Shown: positions 9,925-63,095 of the stretch, piece by piece | Layout of the letters: each line of letters begins with the position of its first letter | Numbering within the stretch: the first letter of the stretch is position 1 | From: an uncultured Hormoscilla sp. | GTDB lineage: Bacteria; Cyanobacteriota; Cyanobacteriia; Cyanobacteriales; Desertifilaceae | Length of the DNA: 64,000 nt | Direction of reading: 5' to 3' | Assembly (NCBI GenBank): GCA_963921275.4 | Contig: OZ001293.3 | Span: forward strand, 6,336,001 to 6,400,000 | Made by a program: the position numbers and the translations under genes | The notes under the pieces: model-generated | Seen by the model: the letters and a program-made list of their open reading frames with translations, nothing else | Told to the model about the DNA's origin: nothing | Databases searched by the model: none

Positions 9925-10403
9925 ATGAAAACAATTACTTTGGACAACCAGGCTATTGGGCTAGTCGAAGCAGTTCCCGAACTGCGATCTTCGATGCACT
10001 GTGCTAATCGCACTACCCCATGCGCTGCGCGCACGCTACGCGGACGCGCATCGACCTATGAAGCAGAACTAGAGTGATGGGGTGACGAACAACCAGGAGT
10101 ACACATTATCCTTGGCGATCTGTTCAACCCATACTTAATCTCTCTGTTAGAATCAGATAATCAACCCGAAAGGCTCAAGCCAGTCTTTAATTTTCTAGAA
10201 GAATTAGCAAACCACGAAGATGTTCGAGTACAAGAAGTGGTAGCGGTGACCGTGTGCGAACGTTTAGGAGATCGAGCAGAATGATTAGCAAAGGCGCGTC
10301 AGTACATGGGTAAGACAACCCTGAACTTTTCTCAAGAAATGGAAGCATTTTGGGGTCGTGATGCAAAAACACTCACGAGAAACGCGGTTTCTGAGAATAC
10401 TTA
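9925..10403 (+). pseudogene. Small helical hypothetical protein with in-frame stops and a hairpin-repeat insertion
   Basis: MKTITLD...AVPELR[insert]YEAELE*WGDEQPG...FLEELA...VCERLGD..*; hairpin element at ~9991-10054. Confidence 0.6.
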
Positions 10404-10942: not shown

Positions 10943-11269
10943 CTCGTCGATGCGCGTCCGCGTAGCGTGCGCGCAGCGCATGGGGTAGTGCGAGTAGCGC
11001 GACACCCCGACGGCATCGAAGGCCACCATCGATCGCCCCGCTTTGGGCGATCGGAAAATTAGTCGGTTACTCAAGACAGATCCAACTCCATCTCATTGCT
11101 GTTCGATGTCTTCGGGATGCTTCGCAAAAACCCCTCAGACATCGCGGAGAAATTCAGCCCTTTGTAGACTGGTTTTCCCAGTGGCGAGGCATATAAAACA
11201 ACTCGCGTACAGTCGATTGCTTTCTGTCATCATGATTAAATCACTGGACGATCACACTTCAACGATCGA

Positions 11270-11598: not shown

Positions 11599-14460
11599 TC
11601 ATTTTTTGGCTTGAATGGGAAGCTCAATGGTAAAAGTCGTTGCTCCAGGTTGAGAGGTACAGTAGAGGTGGCCATTGTGTTTTTCTGTAACAATTTGATA
11701 GCTAATGGATAATCCCAATCCCTTGCCTTTCCCGATCGCCTTAGTGGTGAAAAAAGGATCGAACAGTTTAGTAATGATTGCTGGGCTAATTCCCGGTCCA
11801 TTATCGGTGATGCTAATGGTGACGCTTTCCGATTTTTCCGGAACGGTGTGAGTTTACGTCTGAATGCGAATGCTACTGGGGTCTTGCTGCATGAGTACCG
11901 TTCCGGAAAAATCGGGAGTGCGATCATGATCGCGTTCTTCTAAGGCATCAATAGCATTAGCAATAATATTCAGAAACACCTGATTGAGTTGTCCCGCATA
12001 GCATTGGATCCGAGGTAAGGGGCTGTATTCTTTAATGACGGCAATCTCGGGTCGCCAATCAGTCGCCCGCAAGCGAGATTGCAGAATCATTAAAGCACTA
12101 TCGATGCCTTCGTGCAAGTTGACTTCTTTAACATCCGCTTCGTCAAGACGGGAGAAATTCCGCAGGGATTTAAAGATTTCGCGAATGCGTTCCGTGCCGA
12201 CGCGCATGGAGTTAAACAGCTTGTTCAAGTCTTGCTTGAGAAAATCCAGCTCGAGCGCTTCTATTCGATCGGCAATTTCGGCATGAGGTTCGGGATAGTG
12301 AAGCTGGTAAAGATCGAGCAATTCCATTAACTCTCTCATATATTCCTCCCCATGAAAGAGGTTGCCGTGAATGAAGCTGACCGGATTGTTAATTTCGTGG
12401 GCCACTCCCGCCACCATTTGCCCTAAACTAGACATTTTCTCGCTCTGGATCAGTTGAGTTTGGGTGCGCTGCAATTGGCGCAGGGTTTGTTCGAGTTCCT
12501 TCGCCCTGGCCTGACTTTGGGCCAGGATATTCCCTTGGTTGAGGGCGATCGCTAATTGAGCGATCGCCGCTTCTAAGAGTTCGACTTCATCATCTTTCCA
12601 AGGTCGGACCTCGTGAGCGTGAATGCAGGCAATAAGTCCATAACGTCTGCCCGCATTATCCCAAACCGGCAGCACCAGCATGGAGCGATTGCCTAAAGCG
12701 GTAACAAAATCCCGGACTTCTCGATCTTCAATCTGGGCGACCTCATCGAGGCGCAGGGTTTGTTGACTCAGTAAAACCTCAGACAGGGGGCCAAAGTCAC
12801 TCGTGCGGTGTCGTCCGATAAAGCTGGGCAAGTCAGTCGCCTGCACTTCCGCAACGACATCCCAATAGCAGTCAGAAGCTTCCTCAACATACCAAGCGAA
12901 GTGACAGCGGTCCACTTTCAGGAAATCCTGAATTTCCCGCACGGTCGTATTGATAATTTGGTTGAAATCGAGGGAATTACGAATTTGCTGAGTCAGTTGG
13001 TGAAGGAGTTGTAAGCGTCGGGCCTGCTGAGAAATCAGTTTTGAAGATTGGCACAGGGCCACCTCTTGGCCCTTGCGATCGCTAATGTCGAGAATTAACC
13101 CATCCCAGATAATGGTACCATCCTCTTGTAGTTCTGGTCGCCCAATCGCCTGTACCCATTTCCAGGCTCCCGAAGGGGTAATGATGCGATGTTCGTGTTC
13201 GAAGCGTCCGAGCGATCGGGCCGATGCTGCAATTGCGGCGTTCAGGGAAGCAATATCCGAGCCATGAACGAGGTCAAAGCATTGGATAAAATTGTTCGGT
13301 TCCAGTTCGTAGATATCACGACAGCCTTCCGAGACATAGGGGAAGCATCTGGTTCCATCGGGGTTGAGGCGAAACTCAAAGATTACCACCACCACAATAG
13401 CTGCTAATCGTTGCAAGCGAGATTCGCTGGCCCGGAGTTCTCGGGTTCTCTCCTCGACTCTTTGTTCCAGTTCCTCCTTCAGTTGCCAAAGGGCTACTTC
13501 TGCTTGTTTGCGTTGGGTAATATCCCGACAAATACATATTATAGTCCCGTCTTCCGTTATGGTTAAAGAAAGTTCTTCAAAGAATTTGCTGCCATCTTTG
13601 CGTTTGGCCGTTGCTTCCCCCCGCCAAGACCCCTGCTGCATTAAAATCGGCCTGATTTCGCTCTCAAAGCGAGCGATCTCCTCGGCATCGTAAAGAATTT
13701 GCCAGCTTTTCCCCAGTAGTTCTTCCGGAGAATCGTAGCCGAACATTTGGGCGTGAGCTTGATTCAGATAGATATACCCCTCCTGGGTCAAAATGGCAAT
13801 TCCATCCGTGGTAGCAGCCATCGCGATCGCCTGTTGCTTTAATTTTTCTGCCGTTTTCACCCGCTCCGTAATATCAGCAAAGATTCCCAACATGCCGAGC
13901 GCATTTCCCTCACCATCCTTAATAGTAATTTTATTCATTTCCCACCAATGCTTGCTGCCATCAGCCTCTTCTTGAGCTTCGATGATTTTCAGATCCTTGT
14001 CCTCCAAGCGATCGCCTTCCCGAAACCAGTCTTCGATGTCTCCGGAGTAGTGCGAGTTCGGTGTCCCCCGGGTAGTGCGAATAGCGCTCCCGGGTGACAC
14101 CGAAAGCTCTCCGGAGACATCGAACTCTTCTCCTTTCCCAGCTAAATCTTCGTCGCTTTTTCCCCTAATTTCTGCCGCTGATTTCAATCCTGCCATCTTC
14201 GCAAAATTATGATTGCAACCTAAATAAATATTATCGCTATTTTTCCAAGATAAGGCCGCTGGCATATTGTCGAGCGCGAGGCGCAAAAAATGTTCCGATT
14301 CACAACATTCAGAGAGCATTTTGGCTAGAGCTTCCCTAGCCTCTTCTTGTTTTCTATACTCTTGCTCAAAATCTTTGTGAGACTGCTCTAACTGCTTTTG
14401 CAAGTTTTGGTTAACAGCCTCAAGTTCGGCAATTCTTTTTTTCCTGTTTTTTTTTGACAT
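11599..14460 (-). pseudogene. PAS/PAS/PAS-GAF sensor histidine kinase with an in-frame TAA inside the HATPase domain
   Basis: H-box AGVAHEINNP, N-box LNQVFLNIIANAIDA; TAA at 11854-11856, after which the same frame continues DNGPGI...DPFFTTK..GKG.GLGL to a stop at 11599. Confidence 0.88.
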
Positions 14461-15911: not shown

Positions 15912-17608
<1,697 letters not shown>

Positions 17609-21958: not shown

Positions 21959-22102
21959 ATCATTAAAGATGCAAGGATTTGAGATTTCCGATTGCCGAAC
22001 TCCATGGGACTAAGTTTCCTGGGATCGGAGTGCAAACATTTTGACTGTATGATATCAGTCGTGAGTGGCCCGGAAGAATGAAACCGCCCTGCCCTGGTAG
22101 GC

Positions 22103-22207
22103 CAACGGAGAGGTTTTAAACCCCAACGTTGAGGTCCAAAACCTCTCCGTTGAGGTTTTAAACCCCAACGGAGAGGTTTTAAACCCCAACGGAGAAGTCC
22201 AAAACCT
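22103..22207. repeat. Five tandem 21-nt repeats (CAACGGAGAGGTTTTAAACCC variants)
   Basis: Exact 21-nt period, no spacers. Confidence 0.9.
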
Positions 22208-25246: not shown

Positions 25247-26740
25247 ATGACGCCAACTGAAACTAACAGCAAGCATAATTCACCCAATCCCTTACTAAGT
25301 CTCGACTACGAACCCGCTCTGGAATCCTTGGGAGACGACTACTACGATGAAGTCGCAGCGGCGGAATTTCCCCAATATATCCTGAGATGGCGGAATGACG
25401 ACCTGCTATCCCAGCTGGGGTTAGACCCCAAACACGTGACCGATGAAGATTTTATCGAAGCCTTTGGCAAATTGCAAGGAGTGCGTCCCTTTTTGGCACT
25501 GTGTTACCACGGCTATCAGTTTGGGACATATAATCCCCAGCTGGGAGATGGCCGAGGTTTTCTCTACGGACAAGTACGGGGTATGGATGGGGAATTATAC
25601 GACTTGGGCACGAAAGGTTCTGGCCGGACGCCCTATTCTCGCAGCGCTGATGGCAGACTTACCCTCAAAGGTGGAGTGCGGGAAATTTTAGCAGCTGAAG
25701 CATTACATCGCCTGGGAGTCTGTACTTCCCGCTGTTTGAGCATGGTGGAAACGGAGGAACAGCTATGGCGAGGAGACGAACCATCTCCGACTCGTTCCAG
25801 TGTAATGGTGCGTTTCAGTCGTTCCCACATCCGCTTTGGCACCTTTGAAAGGTTGCGTTATTTTGAGCGTAGCGATTTGATCGAGAAGCTGTTAGACCAT
25901 GTAATTGATATTTATTATCCTCCCCATCCTCCCTTGGTTATAAAGGAGAGTGCAGCTGACAGATACCTGCGATTTTATGAAGAATTAGTGCAACGGGTAG
26001 CTGCCTTAGTAGCGCAGTGGATGGCAGCTGGGTTTTGCCATGGGGTGTTAAATACGGATAATATGTCGATTACTGGGGAAAGTTTTGATTACGGTCCCTA
26101 CGCTTTCATCCCCCATTACAATCCCAATTTTACTGCTGCCTATTTCGATTATTACGGACGTTACAGTTACGGTAATCAGTCGCAAGTCTGCAAGTGGAAT
26201 TTAGAAATGTTGCAGGTGGCATTATCAAAGGTAATTCCTGCCGCAGAGATGGACAGTATTTTAGCAAGATTTGATGAGTATTATCAGAGTAGCTATCGAG
26301 AATTAATGATGAAGAGACTGGGGTTAGAGTCAGTGGCAGGAGGGGAAGCAGAGGAGTTACTGAAACTAACAATTGAGGTGTTAAAAGATACGCAGGTAGG
26401 TTATCAGCAGTTTTTCATGGCTTTGAGTGAGGAGTTCGAGCCCAGCTGGCGGGATGATGCCGATCGGATTCCCAATTTTGCCTCTCCGATGTGCTCTGCG
26501 CGCGCTATTCGCACTACGCATCGCACCTCGGCAGTTCCTTGGGAGAAATGGCGAAGATTATATCAGGGGGTTTTGCAGAGTTTACCTGCTGCGGAGATGG
26601 ATAATGTTGCGAGTCGCTTAGAAAAGTATAATCCGAAAACGGTGTTACTCAGACCGGCGATCGAATCTGTGTGGGAGCAAATTGTAGCGGAGGATAATTG
26701 GCAGCCGTTTTATCAGTTGGTGCAGGATATAAAGGAGTAG
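25247..26740 (+). CDS. selO: Protein adenylyltransferase SelO/YdiU
   Basis: [40 protein letters not shown]; in-frame hairpin insertion at 26486-26531. Confidence 0.95.
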
Positions 26741-28832: not shown

Positions 28833-29024
28833 GCAACGGTCTGCATGACCACACCCGCTTCCAGATGCAACGGTCTGCATGACCACACCTTGTATTTGGG
28901 AACGGAAGAGTCGTACCCGGGAACGGAAGAGTCGTACCCGAAAATGGAAGAGTCGTACCCAAGAACGGAAGAGTCGTACCCGAAAACGGAAAAGTCGTAC
29001 CCGGGAACGGAAGAGTCGTACCCG
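28833..29024. repeat. Two 23-nt repeats followed by six tandem 21-nt repeats (GGAACGGAAGAGTCGTACCCG)
   Basis: GCAACGGTCTGCATGACCACACC at 28833 and 28867; 21-nt period over 28899-29024. Confidence 0.92.
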
Positions 29025-29083
29025 ACATGTAGGTTCCCCCTCACGCAGGAAAGGTTATTAACTGAGAAGTATTGGGGCAACCC

Positions 29084-35706: not shown

Positions 35707-37095
35707 TTAGTCGAGGTTAGGCATAGAGAGCACTGGCTCCGTATCCCGATCGATTCCCTTTTCAAAGCCAGCAGCAGCAGCGCGAGCGCGACCAGCGTGC
35801 CACAGATGTCCGACTAAGAAGAAGAAACCGAGAATGAAGTGAGAGCCAGCTAGCCAAGCACGGGGATTAACATAGTTAAAGCCTTGAGCCTCAGTGATAA
35901 TCCCACCCACAGAGTTGATGGAACCATTAGGAGCATGAGTCATGTACTCAGATGCACGACGAACTTGCCAAGGCTGAATATCGTTCCTCAGCTTGTTCAA
36001 GTCCAGACCGTTGGGGCCGCGCAGAGGCTCCAACCAGGGACCTTGGAAATCCCAGAAACGCATCGTTTCACCACCGAAGATAATTTCCCCAGTCGGAGAA
36101 CGCATCAGGTACTTACCCAGACCCGTAGGACCTTGGGAAGAAGCGATGTTAGCACCCAGTTTCTGGTCGCGGACCAAGAACACAAAAGACTGAGCCTGAG
36201 AAGCTTCAGCATTTGTAGGACCGTAAAATTCGCTAGGATAAGCCGTGTTGTTGAACCAAACGTAGGCAGAGGCAATGAAGCCCATCATGCACAGGGCCCC
36301 CAAGCTGTAGGAGAGATAAGCTTCACCAGACCAGATAAACGCGCGACGCGCCCAACCAAAAGGCTTAGTCAGAATGTGCCAGACACCACCACCAATGCAG
36401 ATCAGACCAATCCAGATGTGACCGCCGATGATATCTTCCATATTATTGACGCCGACAATCCAGCCTTTTCCACCGAACGGAGAGTCCAGCAAATAACCGA
36501 AGATAACTGCGGGGTTGAGGGTGGGATTGGCGATTACGCGCACGTCACCACCACCGGGTGCCCAGGTATCATAGACACCACCAAAGAACATCGCCTTAAA
36601 CACCAGCAACAGAGCACCACAACCCAACAGGATCAGGTGGTAGCCGATGATGTTGGTCATTTGGTTCTTGTCTTTCCAGTCATAACCAAAGAAGCTGGAA
36701 TATTCTTCTAAGGTTTCTGGACCGCGAAGGGTGTGATAGAGGCCCCCCAGACCGAGAACGGCCGATGAAATTAGGTGCAGCACCCCAATCACAAAGTAGG
36801 GGAAGACATCTATTACTTCACCGCCAGGACCAACACCCCAGCCGAGAGTGGCCATGTGAGGCATCAAGATCAAGCCTTGCTCATACATGGGCTTTTCCGG
36901 GACGAAGTGAGCGACCTCAAACAACGTCATTGCCCCAGCCCAGAATACGATCAGACCAGCGTGGGCCACGTGAGCACCCAGTAGCTTACCGGACAGGTCG
37001 ATCAGACGAGCGTTACCCGCCCACCAGGCAAACCCAGTGGATTCTAGGTCACGACCGCTCATCACCATTGAACTATTAAAGGATGTTTGTACCAT
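35707..37095 (-). CDS. psbC: Photosystem II CP43 protein
   Basis: [11 protein letters not shown], full loop E with [27 protein letters not shown]. Confidence 0.98.
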
Positions 37096-37150
37096 AACCA
37101 CTTTTGCGATCGACAAAACAGTCAAAATTTATGTGAGCCTTGGCCATTTA

Positions 37151-37436
37151 CGATATCTCTTGGGAGCTCGATGTTTCGGGGTCGAGGTATCTCCTGGGAG
37201 CTTGATGTCCCCCGGACGCACTTCGATGCCTACCGTTCCGGAAAAATCGGGATGCTACGCTGCGCGAAAAATCGCAAAAACCTACGATGCCTTCCGGACG
37301 CACGGCGAAAACCCGGAAGGCATCGCTCAGGCATCGTCGAAACCCGGGGGACATCATCTGAGCACTACCCAGGAGATACCTCGCGCTAGTCGCACTACCC
37401 CCGAAACATCGTAATCGCACTACCCAAGAGACATCG
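37151..37436. repeat. Six-layer nested hairpin element cluster
   Basis: Concentric inverted pairs, most starting CGATG-like; GCACTAC repeated on the right arms. Confidence 0.9.
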
Positions 37437-37704
37437 TCCTATGACCAACCACCTGAGCTTAGCCCCTACCCGCTGACGAGTCAGCCGGTGGCTAATTCAT
37501 TTTTCTTAACATAACACAGTTTTCTGGGAATGATAGGCAAATCCTTGACAGGATTGGCTTTCCCAGGATAAATACTATAATAATCTAAATTGAAAAATTT
37601 ACAATATTTCACATGAATTCTCATAAAATTGGGCGATCGCGCCGGTTATAGAGCAGGTTAAGAGCATCGCCAAATCCAGTCACCCTCGGAGTTTAAGAAG
37701 TTTT

Positions 37705-38271
37705 ATGACAGCACAGACAACCTCGACCGACAATGCCATCTTACGTCAGCAAGTTTTAGGCTCCCGCCGGTTCAGTAACTACTGGTGGACGACGGTAGTC
37801 TCCGCCGGAGCCGGTGGTTTCTTGCTAGCTGGACTCTCAAGCTACTTACAAGTCAACCTGCTACCGTTTAGCAATCCCGAGGAACTGATGTTTGTTCCTC
37901 AAGGCTTGGTGATGAGTCTGTATGGAATAGCGGGCTTGCTGTTGGCACTTTACCTCTGGCTAACGATCCTCTGGGATCTGGGAGGGGGTTACAATGAATT
38001 TAATCGCCAGACCGACCGGGCCATTGTGTTCCGCTGGGGATACCCGGGTAAGAATCGCCGGATAGAGATTAGCTGTCCTCTAGAAGATGTCCAAGCGATA
38101 ATAGTCAAGCTCAAAGAAGGGCTTAACCCTCGGCGGGCCATTTATATACGTGTCAAGGGCAAGGCAAATATTCCCCTGACGAGGGTGGGGCAACCGCTAG
38201 CCCTGAGTACACTAGAAAATCAGGCCGCCGAGTTGGCTCGTTTTCTGGAAGTGCCCATTGAAGGTCTTTGA
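37705..38271 (+). CDS. ycf4: Photosystem I assembly protein Ycf4
   Basis: GSRRFSNY, FVPQG, GGGYNEF, FRWGYPGKNR. Confidence 0.97.
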   Translation: MTAQTTSTDNAILRQQVLGSRRFSNYWWTTVVSAGAGGFLLAGLSSYLQVNLLPFSNPEELMFVPQGLVMSLYGIAGLLLALYLWLTILWDLGGGYNEFNRQTDRAIVFRWGYPGKNRRIEISCPLEDVQAIIVKLKEGLNPRRAIYIRVKGKANIPLTRVGQPLALSTLENQAAELARFLEVPIEGL

Positions 38272-39236: not shown

Positions 39237-40595
39237 CTACGCTGAATCAGTGCCGGAGCAATAGCTAGTAGCATCGGCTGATACTTCAGATGAGCCGTAG
39301 AGGTTAATCAGAATTCCTTCAGGAATATACTTACAAAAGTTTTCCCACAGCTTAGTATCGAGTTCTTCACCACTAGTGATCCAATACCTGAGCCGAGATA
39401 GAGTTCGCGACAAATCTAGTTCTGTTTCTAATATGACATTGAGCAAGGAAGGGACTAGCAATAAACGTGTAACGGAATGCTCCGCTAAAGCCTTCACGAA
39501 ACGATCGGGTTCTTTGACCACAGCATCAGGAATAATAACTGTGGGAATCCCCTGAAGTAAAGCACCAAAAACTTCCCAAACTGAGTCAACAAAACTCAAA
39601 GAGGTTTTCTGGCAGCAAACTTCATCAGGAGCAAAGGGATAAGTTGTCCACATCCAGTGAAAACGATTGACAGCACCTTGGTGAATACCCATTACTCCCT
39701 TGGGTTTTCCTGTAGAGCCTGAAGTGTAAATCACGTAAGCTAGGTTGTCTGAAGTTATATCGCTGACCGGATTGTTGTGACTATGGGTATTAATTAATTG
39801 CCAATCTGTATCAATACAAACTATGGAGGCTGGATGTTTTTGCGGTAATGAATCTAGTAAATTCTGTTGAGTTAGTAACACCTGTACCGCACTATCACAG
39901 AGCATATAATTCAATCGTTCTTGAGGATAGTTGGGGTCAAGAGGAACATAAGCACCACCCGCTTTGAGAACCCCTAATATTGCCACCACCATTTCCAGAG
40001 AACGCTCAACGCATATACCAACTAGTGTTTCTGAGCCTACACCTAAGCTTTGCAGATAATGAGCTAACTGATTCGCTTTTTGATTCAATTTCTCGTAAGT
40101 CAACTGCTCATTTTCAAATACGACTGCTGTAGCATCTGGTGTTTTTGCTACCTGTTCTTCAAATAACTGGTGGATACATTTGTCTTGAGTATATTCATTA
40201 GCTGTTTGATTCCAATCTACTAGTAACTGCTGTCGTTCCTGTGCTGTTAAAATTGGCAGTTGAGCTAATGTTTGTTCTAAGTTTTCTGGGGTTTCGTACT
40301 GCGAGATAGCAGTTAATAAGGTCTTTAGATGACCTAACATACGTTGAATAGCATCTTCCTCAAAACGGTTACTATCGTAAATAATTCTCAGTCGCAATTC
40401 TCTAGCAGGGGTCACAATTACGGTCAGAGCGTAGTTAGTTGGTTCAAAGCTGGATAAATTGCTGATTTCTAGACCAAAATATTGCTGTTTTAAAGATATA
40501 TCTAGAGGATAATTTTCAAAGACGACGATGCTCTCAAACAAAGACAATCTTTTCCTTATTTGACTCCAAGACTGAATATCTACTATTGGTCCCAA
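39237..40595 (-). pseudogene. Orphan NRPS fragment (end of a condensation domain + truncated adenylation domain)
   Basis: VFENYP, LKAGGAYVPLDP, YTSGSTGKPKG, FVDS, NLYGSSE and then a stop; no later A motifs and no PCP. Confidence 0.88.
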
Positions 40596-52493: not shown

Positions 52494-53671
52494 TTATTGG
52501 TAAGCTAGCAAGAGTTCGACGTCGGGAATCTCGGTTTTTACATAAGGGGGGTTTTCTAATTGCTTGGAAACCCGCAAATCTAAGACCTCTTGGGGGATGC
52601 TGCCAGTCAGTTGGTTATCGTTCAGCAAGAGAAGTCGCAAATTGGAAAGATTCCCTAACTCCGTCGGGATGCTGCCAGTCAGTTGGTTGGAGTCCAGCCA
52701 GAGAAACTCCAAATTAGAAAGATTCCCTAACTCCGTCGGGATGCTGCCAGTCAGTTGGTTGGAGTCCAGCCAGAGAAACTCCAAATTGGAAAGATTCCCT
52801 AACTCCGTCGGGATGCTGCCAGTCAGTTGGTTGCCGTCCAGCCGGAGAGACTCCAAATTGGAAAGATTCCCTAACTCCGTCGGGATGCTGCCAGTCAGTT
52901 GGTTGGAGTCCAGCCGGAGAAACTCCAAATTGGAAAGATTCCCTAACTCCGTCGGGATGCTGCCAGTCAGTTGGTTGAAGTTTAGGATGAGCCTTATCAC
53001 CCTGTCGTTAGCTACCGTCACCCCACGCCAACCATTAACAATAGAAGCTTCGGGGGGAGTTTGGCTGTTGAAATTCCAGCTAGCCCAGCCTGTATTGTTC
53101 CTCCAAGAAGCCCCATTGGTGCTTTGATAGAGAGCCCTTAAGACCTGATACTCCTGCTGGGGGGGATCAATATGCCCCCATAGGCCATCTGAGCTTCTGC
53201 GGACAATGCTAAGGGAGTTTTCATCCCCGGAGTTCGCCACTCCAACTTCCAATTTCCGCCCCGGGCTGCTGCCCCTGTCCGGGTAGTAGAGGCGGCGAGG
53301 GATGCCCCGGTTAGGGCCTGTAGCTTAGTCATCAACTCCTCTCCTGCATCTCCGGCGGCGACGTTACAGCCGTAGAGTAGGAGTTGTTTTACCTTCCACT
53401 TCTGCAGGGTAGAGGCGTAATCTCCTAGAGTATCTAAACTCAGTTGGGAGTTTCCCAGATACAGACAGCCAGGGCTGCCGTGGGAGAGTAGGTGCAGAAC
53501 CTCGGTTTCTCGATGCTGTCGGAGAAGTTCGCCGATCTGTTTGATGCCATCGGACCGAAGGTCTAAGAGGAAAGATTTGGCCCCAGGCCGGATGCCGTCT
53601 ATAAGCTGCTGGTAGTTTTCTAGGGAGGCATCCACTACTACCATGGTGTTGGCATTGGTATTATGCTTCAT
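52494..53671 (-). pseudogene. DUF4347 + leucine-rich-repeat protein, frameshifted and probably truncated
   Basis: HGSPG, LYGCNVA, GGNW.LE (DUF4347); 24-aa LRRs NQLTGSIPTELGNLSNL as 72-nt near-identical repeats over ~52595-52980. Confidence 0.85.
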
Positions 53672-62639: not shown

Positions 62640-63095
62640 CTAATACCATTTTTTTAAAGGTATGATAAACTTGAGTAGGCACAGAGGCCAAGGAGGCGGG
62701 AGCCTCCGAATACCGTTCCCAGGTTCTACCTGGGAACGAGAGAAATGGTATTAGTCGGTTTTAACTCATATCTTGCACCATTTTAAACTAGAGGCGGAGC
62801 CTCGATAACTCGTTCGGTGTCTGAGACTGAGAACGAGGGGAAAATACCTGTTAAATAAGGCTTTCAGTCGGTTTTCAACCGACTTGAGCTATTAGCCGTG
62901 GGTTAAACCCACGGCGGGCCGTGAGACCAATTGAGAATGGTGCAAGATGTCAGTTTTAACCGACTTTAGCTATTAGACGGCGCTATCCCCCGGGTAGTGC
63001 GGTTACGATGTCTCGGGGGTAGTGCACGCGTCCCCCTCTGGGGGGACATCGAGCTCCCGGGGGATAGCGTGGGTTTGCAACCCCCGGCGGGCTGA
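62640..63095. repeat. Cluster of nested MITEs and palindromes
   Basis: CTAATACCATTT / AAATGGTATTAG IR pair; element 62765-62953 with target duplication TTTTAA; nested hairpin element 62981-63069. Confidence 0.8.

Follow-up and report, generated by a model that had tools for sequence, protein, structure and literature searches.

A six-layer nest of short hairpin elements upstream of psbC in an uncultured Hormoscilla, and the mobile family to which it belongs

How does a single intergenic site come to hold six hairpins, one inside another, and what could have put them there? In this study, we address this question for a stretch of 64,000 nucleotides (hereafter the window; G000:C1:6336001-6400000, G000 being the source genome) from a sponge-associated cyanobacterium described as uncultured in PMC6520454. 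This cyanobacterium is rich in HIP1, the octamer being 56-fold more frequent than expected. The nest lies between psbC and the divergent ycf4, its insertion point being 53 nt upstream of the likely psbC ATG (Table 1). A 125-aa open reading frame running across it (37037-37414) has no NCBIfam match and was treated as spurious, and an Rfam scan returned nothing over the nest at the gathering score, with three matches elsewhere in the window. One of the Rfam matches is IsrR (169 bits, 36492-36678, plus strand), antisense within psbC, and probably reflects the similarity of psbC and isiA. As a separate observation on this neighbourhood, psbD is absent upstream of psbC (window 35707-37125) in G000 and in G002; in G000 it is found as one distant copy (G000:C1:125096-126151), while psbD and psbC are adjacent in sister-genus loci (L007, L009, L013).

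The six concentric inverted pairs of the original prediction are all present where it had placed them. As DNA, the interval 37140-37450 folds at -89.2 kcal/mol (z = -11.7), a value equalled in none of 100 shuffles. The nest is a composite inserted at C^A on the minus strand, with no duplication, and its terminal GTA is missing in the empty allele. Position 37436 is the target C and pairs with the G of the GTA tail; the outermost pair (37151-37164/37423-37436) has one mismatch, which is G.T on the minus strand. The motif GCACTAC, proposed to recur beside the right arms, does so for the three outer layers, while layers 4-6 carry other loops, of B and C types. Two 15-nt micro-inserts within layer 5 are unrelated to the hairpin family: the one at 37232-37246 belongs to a family of 185 copies, 160 of them directly after CGA, and the one at 37257-37271 to a second family of 100 copies, 94 of them after CGA.

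Table 1. Parts of the nest, its neighbouring genes and other family members in the window (window coordinates)
Feature	Coordinates	Strand	Remarks
Composite insertion, 287 nt	37149..37435	-	Outer 13-bp hairpin and 3' GTA tail
3' G-N-A tail (GTA) of outer element	37149..37151	-	Missing in empty allele
Layer 1 3' arm, A type	37152..37164	-	
Layer 1 5' arm	37423..37435	-	
Layer 2, A type	37169..37411	-	Arms 37169-37181 / 37399-37411; at site 1 in the layer 1 loop
Layer 3, A type with variant loop TCAGA	37183..37383	-	Arms 37183-37198 / 37368-37383; loop site 2 of layer 2
Layer 4, B type	37203..37356	-	Arms 37203-37215 / 37344-37356; site 1 of layer 3
Layer 5, C type	37224..37336	-	Outer arm ends 37224-37231 / 37329-37336; within layer 4 loop
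Layer 6, simple B type, GTA tail	37285..37325	-	Arms 37285-37297 / 37313-37325; in layer 5 5' arm
15-nt micro-insert, family one	37232..37246	-	In layer 5 3' arm
15-nt micro-insert, second family	37257..37271	-	In layer 5 loop
Three GCACTAC cores	37362-37368, 37392-37398, 37417-37423	+	Loop halves of layers 3, 2 and 1
psbC (CP43)	35707..37095	-	TIGR01153, 887 bits, above cut-off; likely ATG 37095
ycf4	37705..38271	+	Divergent from psbC; NF002712 above cut-off
Degenerate member, micro-repeat in one arm	9991..10054	-	Fold; missed by covariance model
Member with micro-repeat in 5' arm	10948..11019	+	Model E 0.022
Simple C-type, tandem GA/GA mismatch, GAA tail	11103..11144	-	Fold, model
Two-layer A-type nest	14032..14124	+	In frame inside histidine kinase gene (11854-14460, -)
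Simple A-type	26486..26531	-	In frame inside SelO/YdiU gene
Two-layer nest, G-type outer loop	43598..43694	+	Fold, model
Two-layer A-type nest inside another repeat	62981..63069	+	Fold

Each layer is a member of a family of units of 42-45 nt (42-46 nt among the empty and filled pairs), with a stem of 12-13 bp and a bulged apical hairpin whose loop is GANTA with any N. Of 1163 chromosomal GCACTAC cores, 343 are matched, no further than 600 nt upstream and with one mismatch at most, by the reverse complement of the 12-mer that follows them, against 0-7 matched arms for each of eight permuted heptamers (395-1357 cores each), and the spacings from core to arm cluster at 11 nt (simple elements), 50-56, about 100 and about 140-150 nt. 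Our parser counted 388 elements across types A, B and C, and 265 of these are outermost; G-type loops come in addition. The stems differ between copies and stay complementary, as had been proposed: in a set of 63 distinct arm pairs, both sides had changed in 205 cells compared with 61 in shuffles, and none of 500 shuffles reached 205, pairing being partly built in by the pre-selection of rows at no more than three arm mismatches. There are 166 arm types among 242 simple elements. The supposed single conserved loop motif did not survive, as at least four loop types (A, G, B and C) sit on the same stems; the C-type loop includes GCGAAGC, and GTAG is confined to the inside of A-type loops, being absent from types G, B and C. 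All seven further window sites assigned to the family fold as family hairpins, six of them matching the covariance model (E values 9e-17 to 0.04) and 9991-10054 being missed by it. Copies in frame add 14-15 codons to genes.

Among the genomes searched, the hairpin family is restricted to Hormoscilla. The covariance-model scan of genome and relatives that the original prediction called for found it in all five Hormoscilla genomes and in none of nine sister-genus genomes. The arm pattern occurs in five of 251 genomes of the order, all of them Hormoscilla, and the loop pattern in none of 400 other genomes of the phylum. A loop-pattern scan of genome contigs gave at least 77 loci; among the matches listed, 75 were Hormoscilla and two others had no stem. 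Exact family patterns had no match in viral contigs or metagenome contigs. The literature searches listed no description of the family, and neither 'palindrom' nor 'hairpin' occurs in one Hormoscilla genome paper (PMC6520454).

That this is a real mobile family is, in our view, close to certain. Orthologous loci are polymorphic for presence and absence, in line with the proposed non-autonomous, structure-conserving mobile element of about 45 nt. The nest site itself is empty in four related species (G001-G004), including the more distant G001. Metagenome contigs of runs X6, X7, X8 and X10 skip exactly 287 nt, the junction in X6-X8 reading TA..TC with an unambiguous boundary, and a contig of run X9 crosses the site and is empty. 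Run X5 carries at least the three outer layers at this site, its contig match ending after 37201, which hints at a shallower nest. Taken together, the alleles at the nest locus point towards recent gain at a unique site as the favoured history.

Beyond the nest, the comparison of empty and filled sites drew on some 2.4 Mb from G002 and G004 together with about 150 short loci. It produced 928 paired rows. No large gap was seen in 722, and the others were complex or duplicate apart from 48 rows that were both distinct and clean. Target duplication is absent at these insertions, direct repeats at the 48 junctions measuring 0 nt in 26 rows, 1 nt in 18, 2 nt in three and 4 nt in one. In 22 of 39 register-checked rows (which include one site twice, L077/L093, two within-nest comparisons and one off-register G-type row) the net gain is the hairpin plus 3 nt; 19 of these 22 end in GNA, and the empty site has C at -1 in 15. 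The other 17 are mostly blunt palindromes of 44 or 46 nt from the TGTG, CGTG and GGTG subfamilies, which have no GNA tail. Where the target has no C at -1, the filled allele has one in six of seven rows. The base at -2, which is subfamily-linked, becomes T on filling in four of 22 rows, and T at -2 accompanies A at +2 in 82 of 97 cases. A few pairs retain GAA on the empty side.

Read on the strand of the TAGTGCG loop, the usual unit is a hairpin with a 3' G-N-A, placed after C and usually before A or G, so that the stem is flanked by a variable N-N-C on its 5' side and by G-N-A on its 3' side. The GNA tail is found in 160 of 253 outer elements. Of the 95 elements with a base other than A in the middle position, 46 still have A in the third, against a background of 18%, and by arm type base 3 is A in 23 of 44 compared with 36 of 151 on the opposite strand. 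The tail tracks subfamily (concordance 0.81 vs 0.63, 0 of 1000 shuffles) and the next base does not. GNA tails end 114 of 192 intergenic and 55 of 73 intragenic elements, and their presence between genes argues that they are not merely a product of reading-frame selection.

Several signals distinguish the two strands. On the tail strand, G.T stem mismatches outnumber A.C mismatches by 79 to 44 (p 0.002), tandem GA/GA occurs eight times and TC/TC never (five and zero in relatives), and both a G.T pair in the apical hairpin and the GCGAAGC of the C-type loop likewise point to the GNA-tail strand. A stricter count restricted to near-perfect stems gives no strand signal (G.T 62, A.C 53), the G.T and A.C counts in relatives (23 vs 14) do not differ significantly, and all p-values overstate the significance because the copies are kin. 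Orientation shows no bias with position along the chromosome or with the local GC skew (139/265). Within long open reading frames, by crude gene calls, the tail strand is antisense in 40 of 48 cases, above the 56% expected from stop codons, and where it lies between co-directional genes it tends to be sense, 61 vs 43. When their ends are joined, five simple units fold into dumbbells in which the tail makes a loop of 3 nt, and the whole 287-nt nest does likewise. A C:G pair closes the predicted loop in 132 of 169 GNA elements and in 55 of 96 others, an excess due largely to the GATG subfamily. Published work describes d(GNA) loops with a closing C:G pair as unusually stable in DNA (PMC3201870), and a related tetraloop mini-hairpin as losing much of its strength when made of RNA (PMC13037366). 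From the dumbbell fold and the stability of C(GNA)G in DNA we infer a single-stranded DNA circle, and movement through a single-stranded DNA intermediate seems slightly favoured. The assembled contigs, which were the material searched, showed no circular or excised molecule.

The explanation we prefer, held tentatively and a little short of an even chance, is that the nest is a composite of six 42-45-nt hairpins from a family that moves as a folded single-stranded DNA circle, with an HUH enzyme of the Y1/RAYT type acting in trans. The tail-bearing strand would fold when exposed, and a unit would be released by cutting at its stem foot and behind its tail. Joining of the ends would then give a dumbbell with a C(GNA)G triloop as its cap. 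Mismatches in the stem would be corrected within the dumbbell, so that the arms stay complementary, and the GA of the tail could pair with a C, or a TC, immediately 5' of the point of insertion. Loop contents would ride along, by which rare insertions into older copies would be amplified as composites, and conversion between copies could deepen these further. Taken on its own, an HUH enzyme as the mobiliser is doubtful, if possible: the varied net lengths in 17 of 39 pairs are loose for HUH chemistry, and the conserved GTAG at the stem foot is absent. Further, a plain 45-nt circle explains neither the GAA on the empty side nor the C gained at -1.

As the original prediction had it, no mobiliser lies within the 64-kb window; the transposase or reverse transcriptase gene flanked by these hairpins that it proposed to look for did not turn up, no RAYT or Y1 gene being so flanked and the reverse transcriptases being unlinked to the elements. 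Four RAYT-like genes are present in G000, one of them above the NF047646 cut-off, and the family flanks none of the four, each of which has its own, different repeat. The 25 Y1 loci of G001-G005 are not flanked by the family either, a few isolated short motif matches aside; with genomes 93-97% complete, a RAYT gene may have been lost or left unassembled. Just one RAYT gene of G000 is clearly intact, and of the four relatives G003 alone carries a close copy of it; an intact Y1 protein of G000 is encoded at C1:2007194-2007730. In G001, G002 and G004 an intact Y1 gene (L141, L142, L143; a 213-aa protein at L141/L142) has a REP-like repeat at its flanks. This gene was not found in G000, where its repeat has 43 copies, 25 empty and 18 filled by a hairpin.

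Other enzyme classes fared no better. Tyrosine recombinases (PF00589) have no match in G000, G001, G002 and G004, the model matching in G003 and in nine of nine sister-genus genomes, with controls positive in 14 of 14. An integron attC cassette system would need such a recombinase (IntI) in the genome. Telomere resolvases were found in none of 14 genomes, IS110 is represented by one broken copy, and a search for IS91/Y2 gave no match for either target or control. Six TnpB elements in G000, which spread recently (G000:C1:49983-51674 and five copies, >99% identical), have ends unrelated to the family; the sequence upstream of their tnpB resembles a recombinase frame of IS607 type that overlaps it. 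Elements lie on either side of eight genes, whose N-termini read as those of ordinary host genes. A transposase-bearing long parent was not found from 40 orphan 5' arms, the one distant pairing being two separate nests. A broader description strikes us as unlikely, if worth stating: a near-minimal element that is a covalently closed single-stranded DNA dumbbell of 42-45 nt, defined not by its sequence but by its shape (long stem, bulged apical hairpin, C(GNA)G cap), that carries at least 240 nt of loop cargo and that is served by an enzyme other than a flanked RAYT or a tyrosine recombinase.

Reverse transcriptases are abundant in G000, with 93 RVT_1 matches and 438 intron-like 5' ends (window 17162-17239 included), so that most group II intron copies seem to have no ORF. 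The hairpins could accordingly be micro-retroelements: the enzymes of group II introns would copy transcripts containing them, and the copies would be joined into nicks or breaks by 1-2-nt microhomology, snap-back synthesis evening the arms. An RNA route has reportedly been suggested for the Nostoc SDRs, and both junctions that vary by 1-2 nt and G.U-compatible wobbles on one strand suit such a route. Group II intron-like reverse transcriptases do perform microhomology joining and snap-back synthesis, as bioRxiv 2022.03.14.484287 and PMC11761039 describe. We nevertheless consider this unlikely, since the tail is an inherited G-N-A and not an untemplated run of A, the apical loop is GANTA and not GNRA-like, and the elements are not enriched at intron ends (two of 438 within 100 nt, about four expected). 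The retron-type reverse transcriptase (C1:1227185) is 5'-truncated and about 21 kb from the nearest element, where a repeat derived from retron msDNA would have it beside a matching hairpin, and a free-standing YMDD enzyme is broken by a stop and also about 21 kb from any element.

The order in which the nest was assembled bears on whether insertion targets the family itself. Read on the minus strand, the layers are an A element, a second A at its loop site 1, a third A at site 2, a B at site 1, a C in the B loop and a B in the C arm. The idea that copies land in the loops of older ones holds in part: orthologous pairs one layer apart document real loop insertions, and layer 6 sits in an arm. 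Six successive self-targeted landings, by contrast, did not hold up, as the inner core exists ready-made at other G000 loci and in G003 and G004. The C unit alone, C with B, and the core with micro-inserts each recur elsewhere in G000; layers 4-6 lie inside different outer arms at C1:5082515 and C1:5633183, layers 5-6 form a two-layer element at C1:3408346, and G003 and G004, in which the nest site is empty, hold a variant of the core (L121, L129). Most of the nest was therefore built before it arrived. Loop junctions are stereotyped, with 175 children at site 1 and 35 at site 2 compared with 153 simple loops, and no standard +45 insertion was seen at the site-1 position. The TCAGA loop variant is filled in all 13 of its cases, while TTTTA is empty in 14 and filled in four. 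The 18 hairpins in the Y1-associated repeat share one position, have nine different 5' arms, and where a partner arm was located it mostly complements the 5' arm, with GAA coming after it. Most of the nesting can be explained without strong self-targeting by a small number of founder insertions that were multiplied as cargo and reshuffled through conversion; a genuine preference for hairpins may nevertheless exist, since the family, at 23 kb or more, makes up only 0.34% of the chromosome.

Rearrangement in place could also mean that no dedicated mobiliser is needed, hairpins clipped from replication forks being captured at breaks by host repair while template switching and gene conversion build the arms and nests. 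Arms do change in place at orthologous sites, with a hybrid state identified (C1:1190030 against L109 and L084/L220), and A and G loops are swapped in two of 12 same-depth orthologous pairs. The C gained at -1 on filling, the change of -2 to T and the lack of any enzyme gene linked to the family fit as well. Host repair fails to explain, however, why 22 of 39 pairs fall into one net-length class, and leaves unaccounted for both a subfamily-borne 3' GNA tail on one strand and a conserved bulged apical hairpin. It would also have to be confined to one genus although repair machinery is general, and we regard it as rather improbable. Least probable, and by some way doubtful, is that the family has ceased to be self-mobile and consists of passengers of larger repeats (REP, MITE or IS), many empty alleles being hairpin-stimulated deletions: the 18 copies at one position of the Y1-associated repeat, several copies inside multi-copy IS-like sequence, the GAA kept by some empty alleles and the fact that most pairs are not polarisable by an outgroup would suit it, but the nest site, whose flanks are unique, lacks the insertion in four species and in close strains, about 250 outer elements have distinct flanks, and microhomology deletion would not repeatedly take exactly the hairpin and GNA.

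Among known systems the closest in character are SDR1-8 of Nostocaceae, which Elhai et al. reportedly described in 2008 as very small (21-27 nt), dispersed, recently mobile and nested, with compensatory stems and an unknown mobiliser. Compared by description, the Hormoscilla family is likewise small, dispersed, polymorphic, compensatory and nested. It differs in its length of 42-46 nt, its 12-13-bp stem, its 3' GNA tail, its composites of up to 287 nt that move whole and its occurrence outside Nostocaceae, where according to PMC5861425 no SDRs had been found. SDR5 inserts precisely into HIP1, according to PMC5861425 and PMC4390886, which is akin to the way the micro-inserts of the nest follow CGA. 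With REPs and REPINs the family shares a strand-asymmetric bulged hairpin, a one-sided tail and a junction after C, as PMC3116915, PMC8266576, PMC6006769 and PMC3733652 describe them. In the same sources, a REPIN is a doublet with a 5' tail, whereas the family is a single hairpin with a 3-nt 3' tail; it also has no GTAG/GTGG or CGTC at the palindrome foot and no flanked RAYT gene, and its in-frame intragenic copies are frequent. For RAYTs, cleavage of single-stranded hairpin substrates takes place at C^T or C^A (PMC8266576), and CGTC REPs have no dedicated transposase (PMC3733652). Insertion 3' of a short target, possible pairing of element and target and a predicted single-stranded circle are common to the family and IS200/IS605 as PMC6006769 and PMC8266576 present the latter. 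Unlike IS200/IS605, the family uses one hairpin for both ends and has only C^R as its target; no parent IS was found for it. Rickettsia palindromic elements, which are about 100-150 nt, are likewise hairpin repeats translated in frame in ordinary genes (here SelO and a histidine kinase); the present family is shorter, self-nesting and polymorphic between close relatives. MITEs resemble it in being non-autonomous, with inverted-repeat ends and empty and filled sites (PMC3184786), and differ in that the family is far shorter, makes no target duplication, varies its arms while keeping them complementary and has an asymmetric tail; no conserved terminal inverted repeats shared with a transposase-bearing parent were found. 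The family works like a REPIN or an IS200-type miniature element yet lacks the foot tetranucleotide and flanked RAYT gene of REPs and the target duplication of MITEs.

To the question of how bacterial repeats of under 50 nt, such as Nostoc SDRs, CGTC-type REPs and RPEs, spread, this family brings exact ends, dozens of empty and filled pairs and one falsifiable intermediate, the ...CATC-GNA-GATG... junction. If the dumbbell is real, it would imply a scarless single-strand insertion activity that needs only a target C and carries cargo in its loop.

Further repeats of these genomes deserve mention. Additional hairpin families, one with an E-type loop and a longer GAGCACCCACCC type (G000:C1, e.g. 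524889 and 729573; L078, L082), nest in or beside the family, and may share its way of moving. Comparison of G002:C2 2.6-3.0 Mb with G000 revealed other polymorphic micro-repeats of 15-31 nt, among them a 22-nt unit whose insertion is precise at each of several sites, and one of 24 nt that occupies a HIP1-like site. Within the window, an adenylation-domain ORF with a partial NRPS model match (39237-40595, minus strand) is possibly a truncated gene, and tandem arrays occupy 52594-52981 (72-nt x 5.4), 28900-29025 (21-nt x 6) and 22102-22195 (21-nt x 4.5).
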